A stretch of 42,471 nucleotides of DNA from a virus (lineage: Duplodnaviria > Heunggongvirae > Uroviricota > Caudoviricetes): the IMG/VR virus record IMGVR_UViG_2513237219_000005, positions 1 through 42,471 of that record; one strand, given 5' to 3'. Each line of letters begins with the position of its first letter. The first letter of the stretch is position 1. A model generated the notes under the pieces. The model was given only the letters and a program-made list of their open reading frames with translations. It searched no databases and had not been told where the DNA came from. Made by a program: the position numbers and the translations under genes. Shown here in pieces: positions 29,138-29,572 of this stretch.

Positions 29138-29572
29138 TTAGTCCTCACCTTTCTGTTGCACTACCGGAACCGATAAATCGACGCACCAGGAGATAACGCC
29201 GAATTGATCATCGTTCTGCGCTTCACCCCAAACGTAATATTTTGATCCTGGCCGACCCATTGCCGGGTCAAATACTTCTATGCCGCGTTCTGCCGTTAAC
29301 GACATCAGAATCTGATGCAGGCCGCCTTTGATGTTCAGTGACGGAACGGTCAGGAAGTAAATAAACCCGTAAAGCAATTCGGCCTTGCGCTGGCTTCCGT
29401 AAAAATACGGGATTTTGTAATAATCCAGCGCGTCGTCGAGCCAGTCTGTTTTGTCGTGGAATTTCTGATGCCAGCGTTCCACTACCTCATCGACAGGTTG
29501 ACCGGCAACCATTGCAACGCAGGTAGCCATGCAGGTGTTAAATGTTGGCTGCATTTGATGTTGAAGCATCAC
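29138..29572 (-). CDS. Putative papain-fold (C39-like) cysteine peptidase
   Basis: N-terminal QPTFNTCMATCVAMVAG resembles the Gln/Cys catalytic motif of C39-type peptidases, with a later His (GGLHQILM). Tentative. Confidence 0.45.
   Translation of the reverse strand: MMLQHQMQPTFNTCMATCVAMVAGQPVDEVVERWHQKFHDKTDWLDDALDYYKIPYFYGSQRKAELLYGFIYFLTVPSLNIKGGLHQILMSLTAERGIEVFDPAMGRPGSKYYVWGEAQNDDQFGVISWCVDLSVPVVQQKGED

Follow-up and report, generated by a model that had tools for sequence, protein, structure and literature searches.

A stand-alone C39-type cysteine peptidase predicted in the early operon of a lambdoid prophage and in a large family of phage genes

The window analyzed here is the whole of a 42,471-nucleotide stretch of viral DNA (IMG/VR record IMGVR_UViG_2513237219_000005). 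In the early rightward operon of a lambdoid prophage, in the interval from the replication genes to ninB, it carries a small gene whose product is very probably a C39-type cysteine peptidase, as judged from its conserved residues and its modeled fold. Peptidases of this kind (C39, clan CA) are well known; what is new is a free phage early gene, the representative of a large family, that comes without a transporter, a delivery domain or an immunity gene. As to function, the reading we prefer, with a probability of roughly 0.6, is that the protein is a putative early, cytoplasmic, site-specific C39-type cysteine endopeptidase directed against a host or host-defense protein. Coordinates of the gene, its predicted catalytic codons and its neighbors are collected in Table 1.

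A sequence-only reading of this DNA had drawn attention to the ORF as a small protein with a C39/papain-like catalytic motif. Examination of the translation and codons showed that the ORF is a real gene, with a GTG start and a TAA stop at 29138-29140. The peptide quoted in that reading, QMQPTFNTCMATCVAMVAG, corresponds to residues 6-24 of the product. The Gln-x5-Cys arrangement reported there is formed by Gln8 and Cys14, and the His said to follow about 70 residues later is His86, 72 residues past Cys14. The reported length of 144 aa is accurate for the ORF as it runs from the GTG at 29572, but the ATG at 29569-29567 is the likelier start, which would give a protein of 143 aa. This start is favored because a Shine-Dalgarno sequence, AAGGGGGA, lies directly upstream, the ATG shares a 1-base TGA/ATG overlap with the preceding gene, and most homologs begin with ML or MI. 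Residue numbering throughout follows the 144-residue (GTG) version. Two shadow ORFs on the plus strand, at 29456-29692 and 29542-29664, were without support and were set aside. The next gene on the 3' side begins 3 nt past the peptidase stop codon, and the operon is tightly packed.

Table 1. Features of the predicted peptidase gene and its operon, in order of transcription on the minus strand
Feature	Position	Strand	Basis or remark
pR-like sigma-70 promoter, TTGACA-17-CATAAT, 11/12	34193..34221	-	Consensus scan; would drive the operon
O-like replication initiator	32193-33083	-	
DnaB-type helicase	30799-32196	-	
DUF4406 / nucleoside 2-deoxyribosyltransferase-like protein	30509-30802	-	
159-aa protein	30033-30512	-	
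Ead/Ea22-like protein	29569-30036	-	Directly 5' of the peptidase gene
Translation-coupling junction: Shine-Dalgarno AAGGGGGA, GTG-ATG, TGA of the Ead/Ea22-like gene overlapping ATG	29567..29580	-	Sequence read directly
Predicted C39-type peptidase CDS	29138..29572	-	ORF list; translation/codon check; PHROG 4049, E 3e-52; 855 homologous 50%-identity clusters
Gln8 codon, predicted oxyanion-hole residue, six residues before the nucleophile	29549..29551	-	Invariant; aligned to LahT150-type Gln
Cys14 codon, predicted nucleophile, opens helix 14-23	29531..29533	-	Invariant; model; aligned to C39 Cys
His86 codon, predicted general base, opens strand 85-93	29315..29317	-	Invariant; model; aligned to C39 His
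Asp102-Pro103 codons, predicted third triad residue, D-P-x-x-G, 16 residues past His	29264..29269	-	Invariant; LahT150 'DPAKG'
465-aa protein with C-terminal dATP/dGTP pyrophosphohydrolase domain	27737-29134	-	Directly 3' of the peptidase gene
PHROG 536 regulator	27406-27846	-	
Terminator-like hairpin with T-run	27361..27378	-	Consensus scan; just before ninB, tR2-like position
NinB	26713-27165	-	Followed by RusA and a Q-like antiterminator

The gene had been placed in a nin region, and the gene order confirms this: it runs from O and DnaB through the peptidase gene to ninB, all on the minus strand. In a consensus scan, the first convincing terminator-like hairpin on the same strand was the one at 27378-27361, downstream of the peptidase gene. 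Given this gene order, the pR-like promoter on the 5' side and a terminator-like site only on the 3' side, the peptidase gene is a nin-region gene and should share its transcript with the replication genes early in lytic growth.

Several other features of this part of the window were seen. The hairpin before ninB, which separates this gene from that of the PHROG 536 regulator, has a perfect 7-bp stem (AAGCCTC-TTCG-GAGGCTT) with T-runs on both strands and looks like a bidirectional terminator at the lambda tR2 position. Two promoter-like sites stand back to back at 34193-34266, on the flanks of the immunity region; the minus-strand site is the near-consensus, pR-like one, and a weaker plus-strand site lies upstream of a 230-aa ORF (34294-34986). 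The 159-aa ORF, two genes upstream of the peptidase gene, matched the PADLOC model 'DpdH' (E 1.1e-40) and had no match in Pfam. Together with the DUF4406-like gene and the PF04447 pyrophosphohydrolase, it makes up an accessory cluster related to nucleotides and DNA modification within the nin region. The 465-aa ORF is a mosaic, in which the N-terminal ~140 residues match PHROGs 60, 660 and 5117 and residues 324-417 correspond to PF04447. At the 3' end it shares 110 nt with the regulator ORF when the latter is read at its longest; since the PHROG match of the regulator ORF begins at residue 35, the true start of that ORF is probably internal. A tRNA-Asn (GTT) gene at 25195-25269 (Rfam 55 bits) lies on the minus strand just 3' of the Q-like antiterminator gene (25388-26131, same strand). 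Mosaicism is high in the interval 28000-31000, of which only 47% is covered, at 98% identity, by the best-matching isolate phage, Citrobacter phage Omnitron. The annotated stretch around the peptidase gene contains neither an endolysin nor a holin gene.

The window protein is a full-length member of PHROG 4049, a family of "unknown function" (E 3.1e-52, residues 1-141 against profile positions 1-144 of 145); the PHROG entry thus supplies a name and not a function. The family is missing from curated family databases, and its members are filed as "hypothetical". A Pfam search with the window protein returned nothing, without a match to PF03412 even at E 10, and the protein likewise matched none of Peptidase_C39_2 (PF13529), BtrH_N (PF14399), C70 and phytochelatin synthase (C83). 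Nothing exceeded the threshold in NCBIfam, where only weak RhaT matches appeared; these were dismissed as spurious because they are weak and the query is a soluble 144-aa protein. None of the PADLOC-DB defense models was matched, and searches of PDB sequences with the single protein and with a profile of its close homologs gave no match. A word-indexed homology search found 32 relatives, all from Enterobacterales and none informatively named. An exhaustive profile search, which covered 1.84 billion cluster representatives, identified 855 clusters (50% identity) at E <=1e-3, and 531 of them at E <=1e-10. Nearly all of these relatives are stand-alone proteins of 135-170 aa.

Conservation within the family falls on the residues expected of a C39 catalytic site. 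An alignment of 120 diverse relatives, which share 24-59% identity with the window protein, has just five invariant columns: Gln8, Cys14, His86, Asp102 and Pro103. Residues A20, M21, H35, V76, S78, L79, N80, G106 and Y113 are conserved in at least 90% of the members; Cys18 is invariant in the enterobacterial subgroup only, and a conserved motif, VPSLN..GG, precedes His86. The layout Q-x5-C ... H-x15-D-P-x-x-G is the C39 catalytic pattern, in which an oxyanion-hole Gln accompanies a Cys/His/Asp triad. A chance occurrence of the motif is excluded because the catalytic columns are invariant across 120 homologs of low identity. Where relatives are longer, the additional domains are weak zinc-ribbon matches only, and these fusions give no clue to a target. 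One such relative (P0082, 229 aa) has a C-terminal zinc ribbon at residues 152-219 with a faint match to the Lar restriction-alleviation family (E 0.035), and a gene with a Lar domain is found two genes 3' of the homolog in Klebsiella phage vB_KpM_FBKp34. These two observations are a weak hint of an anti-restriction neighborhood.

The relationship to C39 peptidases at the level of sequence is distant, and for the window protein, which falls below the 22-bit gathering threshold of Pfam, homology is visible at the profile-profile level only. Among the 120 relatives, 10 matched Pfam Peptidase_C39 weakly at E <=0.01 (best 2.4e-6), with the printed PF03412 scores of two relatives below the 22-bit threshold, and one matched the Phytochelatin model weakly (E 0.007). 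When a broad family profile was compared with PDB sequences, LahT150 (6mpz) appeared at a non-significant E value with the Gln, Cys, His and Asp-Pro all in register. Other sub-significant matches included PfhB2, aligned at the catalytic motifs, as well as dystrophin and an arabinanase, which look like noise. With hhalign, the family aligned to the single LahT150 fragment at 52% probability; against an alignment of LahT150-like C39 domains this rose to 93.5% (E 2.2e-7, 98 columns), again with the four residues in register. The spacing of these residues, with the Gln six positions before the Cys and the Asp about 16 after the His, is that of C39 enzymes.

An AlphaFold2 model built on the family alignment (pLDDT 86, pTM 0.84) is consistent with this assignment. 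The predicted fold is papain-like alpha+beta, and its first core helix opens with the putative nucleophile: helix 14-23 begins at Cys14, strand 85-93 begins at His86, and Asp102 follows strand 97-101. No extension beyond the peptidase domain is present in the model. In a fold comparison, C39 domains were the closest structures. PCAT1 scored 9.3 and the ComA peptidase domain 9.2, followed by PeiR (8.8), LahT150 and the C39-like structure 3erv (8.7 each), Staphopain C (8.0), the StbD/CdiA-CT C39 toxin (7.7) and Josephins (~7). PCAT1 was also the top match in a Foldseek search of the PDB (E 1.5e-3, TM 0.54-0.57). Among predicted viral structures, the best matches were uncharacterized Pseudomonas and Erwinia phage proteins and one Bacillus phage "Peptidase C39 domain-containing protein". 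The sequence-only reading had proposed structure prediction and conservation of the Cys as checks that could refute it. The first returned a papain-like fold, and in the second Cys14 proved invariant in the homologs along with the oxyanion Gln, the His and the Asp-Pro. The C39/papain-like cysteine peptidase that it proposed is thus supported by the fold model, by the invariant Q/C/H/D and by the profile-profile link, which make the family a divergent stand-alone branch of the C39 peptidases.

When homologs were sought more widely, all of the contexts examined proved to be phage or prophage. They include temperate and virulent phages of Gammaproteobacteria, and the genes around the homolog are early, replication or small accessory ones. 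Scanning IMG/VR by pattern located 80 viral loci, where identity is 99% in 13 cases and ranges down to about 31% in the others; the homologs at these loci form 18 clades (>=60% identity). By tblastn, 195 carriers were found among 50,697 isolate-phage genomes, all less than 60% identical to the window protein. These include Kuttervirus (Ackermannviridae), Vequintavirinae, Stephanstirmvirinae and Pseudomonas phages, in addition to Queuovirinae (Seurat, CAjan, 9g, JenP1/2) and the Vibrio cholerae podophages VP2/VP5. In virulent phages the homologs lie among small hypothetical genes of the early-region type or near nucleotide and replication genes. Nearly all isolate homologs are annotated "hypothetical protein", two have C39-type labels, and the Kuttervirus members bear the PHROG 4049 label as well. 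Of 5,426 complete E. coli genomes, only 9 contain the exact gene, which PGAP calls hypothetical. The four copies in species-representative bacterial genomes (Serratia, Pseudomonas) are all prophage genes, syntenic with viral contigs. Labels of C39-like type, derived by remote homology, already stand on relatives in a few genome annotations, and a literature search on the family returned computational labels only, with no experimental work found. It had been suggested that a stand-alone cysteine peptidase is not a standard lambdoid function. The gene is indeed a free gene of the nin region, but it is no isolated oddity, since the family is widespread in phages.

The neighbors of the 80 viral loci were compared by calling and clustering their ORFs. 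No family was common to more than 3 of the 18 clades, and neither a conserved partner (substrate, immunity protein or transporter) nor a conserved small downstream gene was found across them. Annotation of the neighbors, where possible, gave O-like initiators, DnaC-like loaders, helicases, NinB, NinG and DNA methyltransferases; in a single clade, which is Mu-like, the MuA transposase and MuB genes lie directly upstream of the homolog. The window gene is a free ORF, and no fusion to or association with an ABC exporter of the AMS/PCAT type was found at the window gene or near the loci of the 18 clades.

In the mechanism that we propose, the early rightward promoter would drive the enzyme along with the replication genes, so that its synthesis would begin early in lytic growth and would not take place in the lysogen. 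The oxyanion hole would be provided by Gln8, while Cys14 would act as the nucleophile and His86 as the general base, oriented by Asp102. The putative enzyme would act in the cytoplasm of the infected cell, where site-specific cutting of a host or defense protein would be a step in host takeover or counter-defense. By analogy with other C39 enzymes, the cut may fall within an exposed loop or leader, next to small residues of the Gly-Gly type. We infer the activity, the cytoplasmic location, the host-side substrate and the cleavage-site preference. Since the predicted catalytic helix already starts at residue 14, a signal peptide would not fit ahead of it, and the protein should be cytoplasmic; it should also act there, since signal peptide, transporter, delivery domain and immunity partner are all lacking. 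Because no phage-encoded partner is conserved, the substrate probably comes from the cell. The near-invariant non-catalytic motifs, shared by Vibrio, Pseudomonas and enterobacterial phages, suggest a target that is itself conserved and not fast-evolving. Cpe1 (PMC12136450) and StbD-CT (bioRxiv 10.64898/2026.05.07.723447) cleave GyrB/ParE between the glycines of the HAGGK ATP lid. These two enzymes are a precedent for free C39 peptidases that hit specific host proteins in the enterobacterial cytosol. A more specific form of the proposal, which we consider rather doubtful, is that the family is a proteolytic weapon of counter-defense or takeover, common to temperate and virulent phages of Gammaproteobacteria, which would inactivate a conserved host or immune protein early in infection with one Gly-Gly-type cut; deconjugation and topoisomerase cleavage would be possible modes.

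Papain-like Cys/His/Asp enzymes include isopeptidases, acyltransferases and small-molecule amidases, which sequence and fold cannot separate from endopeptidases. Several other activities were weighed. The classical C39 task could be performed without a transporter, by removal of a double-glycine leader from a phage or host peptide such as a bacteriocin, microcin or signaling peptide. The nearest structures and the nearest profile are those of double-glycine leader peptidases, and LahT150 is reported to process leaders as an isolated C39 domain (PMC6363468). This activity is nevertheless unlikely, as there is no ABC transporter and no small neighbor is conserved across the 18 clades; a double-glycine leader motif was found in no ORF of the window, even with a relaxed pattern. 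A papain-fold transferase or amidase (BtrH-like, Gsp-amidase-like or resembling the glutathione hydrolase activity of phytochelatin synthase) that modifies a metabolite or signaling molecule would account for some of the lower-ranked structural matches. These matches score below C39, however, the profile link is specifically to C39 peptidases, and the nucleotide-metabolism neighbors are not kept beside the gene in other phages; we regard such an enzyme as quite improbable. Similarly, the presence of Josephin, UfSP and PeiR among the fold neighbors would suit an isopeptidase or deconjugase that removes the Ubl or CD-NTase conjugates of antiviral conjugation systems (Bil-type, or Cap2 of type II CBASS) by cutting, like a deubiquitinase, after the C-terminal Gly. 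C39 domains outscore every deubiquitinase, though, no ubiquitin-binding features were identified, and surface motifs so strongly conserved over the phages of many hosts are easier to reconcile with a universal target than with a sporadic defense system; we judge this activity to be decidedly improbable. There is least to recommend an inert C39-like binding domain of the HlyB type or an enzyme that degrades the cell wall, as phage pseudomurein endoisopeptidases do, either of which would be extremely surprising. What defines C39-like domains of the HlyB type is that they have lost the catalytic Cys; Cys14 is invariant here, and an inert domain was rejected since Q, C, H and D are all invariant. 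A lysin was rejected because the gene lies in an early operon and its product has no export signal and no wall-binding domain.

A further possibility concerns topoisomerases. The window protein might cleave host GyrB and/or ParE at the Gly-Gly of the ATP lid, as Cpe1 and StbD-CT do, and so shut down chromosome maintenance. In Salmonella phage SeF6a (ON809764) the homolog, at 3405-3935, lies between and abuts the genes for the large and medium subunits of topoisomerase II (1571-5257), to both of which it is apparently translationally coupled. Other Kuttervirus phages have the same placement, as judged by tblastn scores identical to that of SeF6a. The phage large subunit has QKSGGQNGEG where GyrB has HAGGK. 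This placement, taken with Cpe1 and StbD-CT, suggests GyrB/ParE as the target, with the phage supplying a replacement enzyme. However, the topoisomerase neighborhood is limited to the Kuttervirus lineage and so counts as one evolutionary observation. No topoisomerase gene lies near the locus in the lambdoid, Mu-like, Seuratvirus, Stephanstirmvirinae, Vequintavirinae, Aeromonas phage or Vibrio VP5 contexts inspected. Lambdoid and Mu phages rely on host gyrase, which makes gyrase an unlikely target for them. Furthermore, the family resembles transporter-type (PCAT) C39 domains more closely in structure than it does StbD-CT, and its profile retrieves neither StbD-CT nor 8ssm by sequence. Given that a topoisomerase gene is missing from the contexts inspected outside Kuttervirus, we do not take topoisomerase targeting as the main explanation and hold it to be very improbable for the window protein.

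The window protein differs in several ways from the systems it most resembles. The C39 domains of PF03412 (PCAT1, ComA, LahT150) are N-terminal domains of ABC exporters, whereas the window protein is free and encoded in a phage early operon, with no leader-peptide substrate near its gene. The window family also has near-invariant motifs of its own, VPSLN..GG before the His and KYY after the Asp. StbD-CT (C183/H258/D275) shares the Cys-His-Asp spacing of the window protein. In contrast to Cpe1, a T6SS effector, and StbD-CT, a CdiA-type toxin, the window protein lacks a delivery domain (PAAR or CdiA), an entry domain, an auto-processing linker and an immunity gene, and its sequence relationship to them is more distant than that to PCAT-type C39. 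The Josephin/UfSP deubiquitinases and PeiW/PeiP/PeiR (C71) score lower than C39, and the window protein lacks their ubiquitin- or wall-binding modules.

Functions in host takeover and anti-defense concentrate in the early accessory regions of phages. To our knowledge, almost all of those described bind, sequester or modify their targets rather than proteolyse them, and we know of no phage protease of this type whose host or immune substrate has been defined. For annotation, genes of the PHROG 4049 type can now be relabeled as predicted C39-like cysteine peptidases. The family could also yield a compact (143 aa), sequence-specific protease tool for use in the cytoplasm. The substrate, once found, would reveal a host or immune protein that many different phages need to cut.
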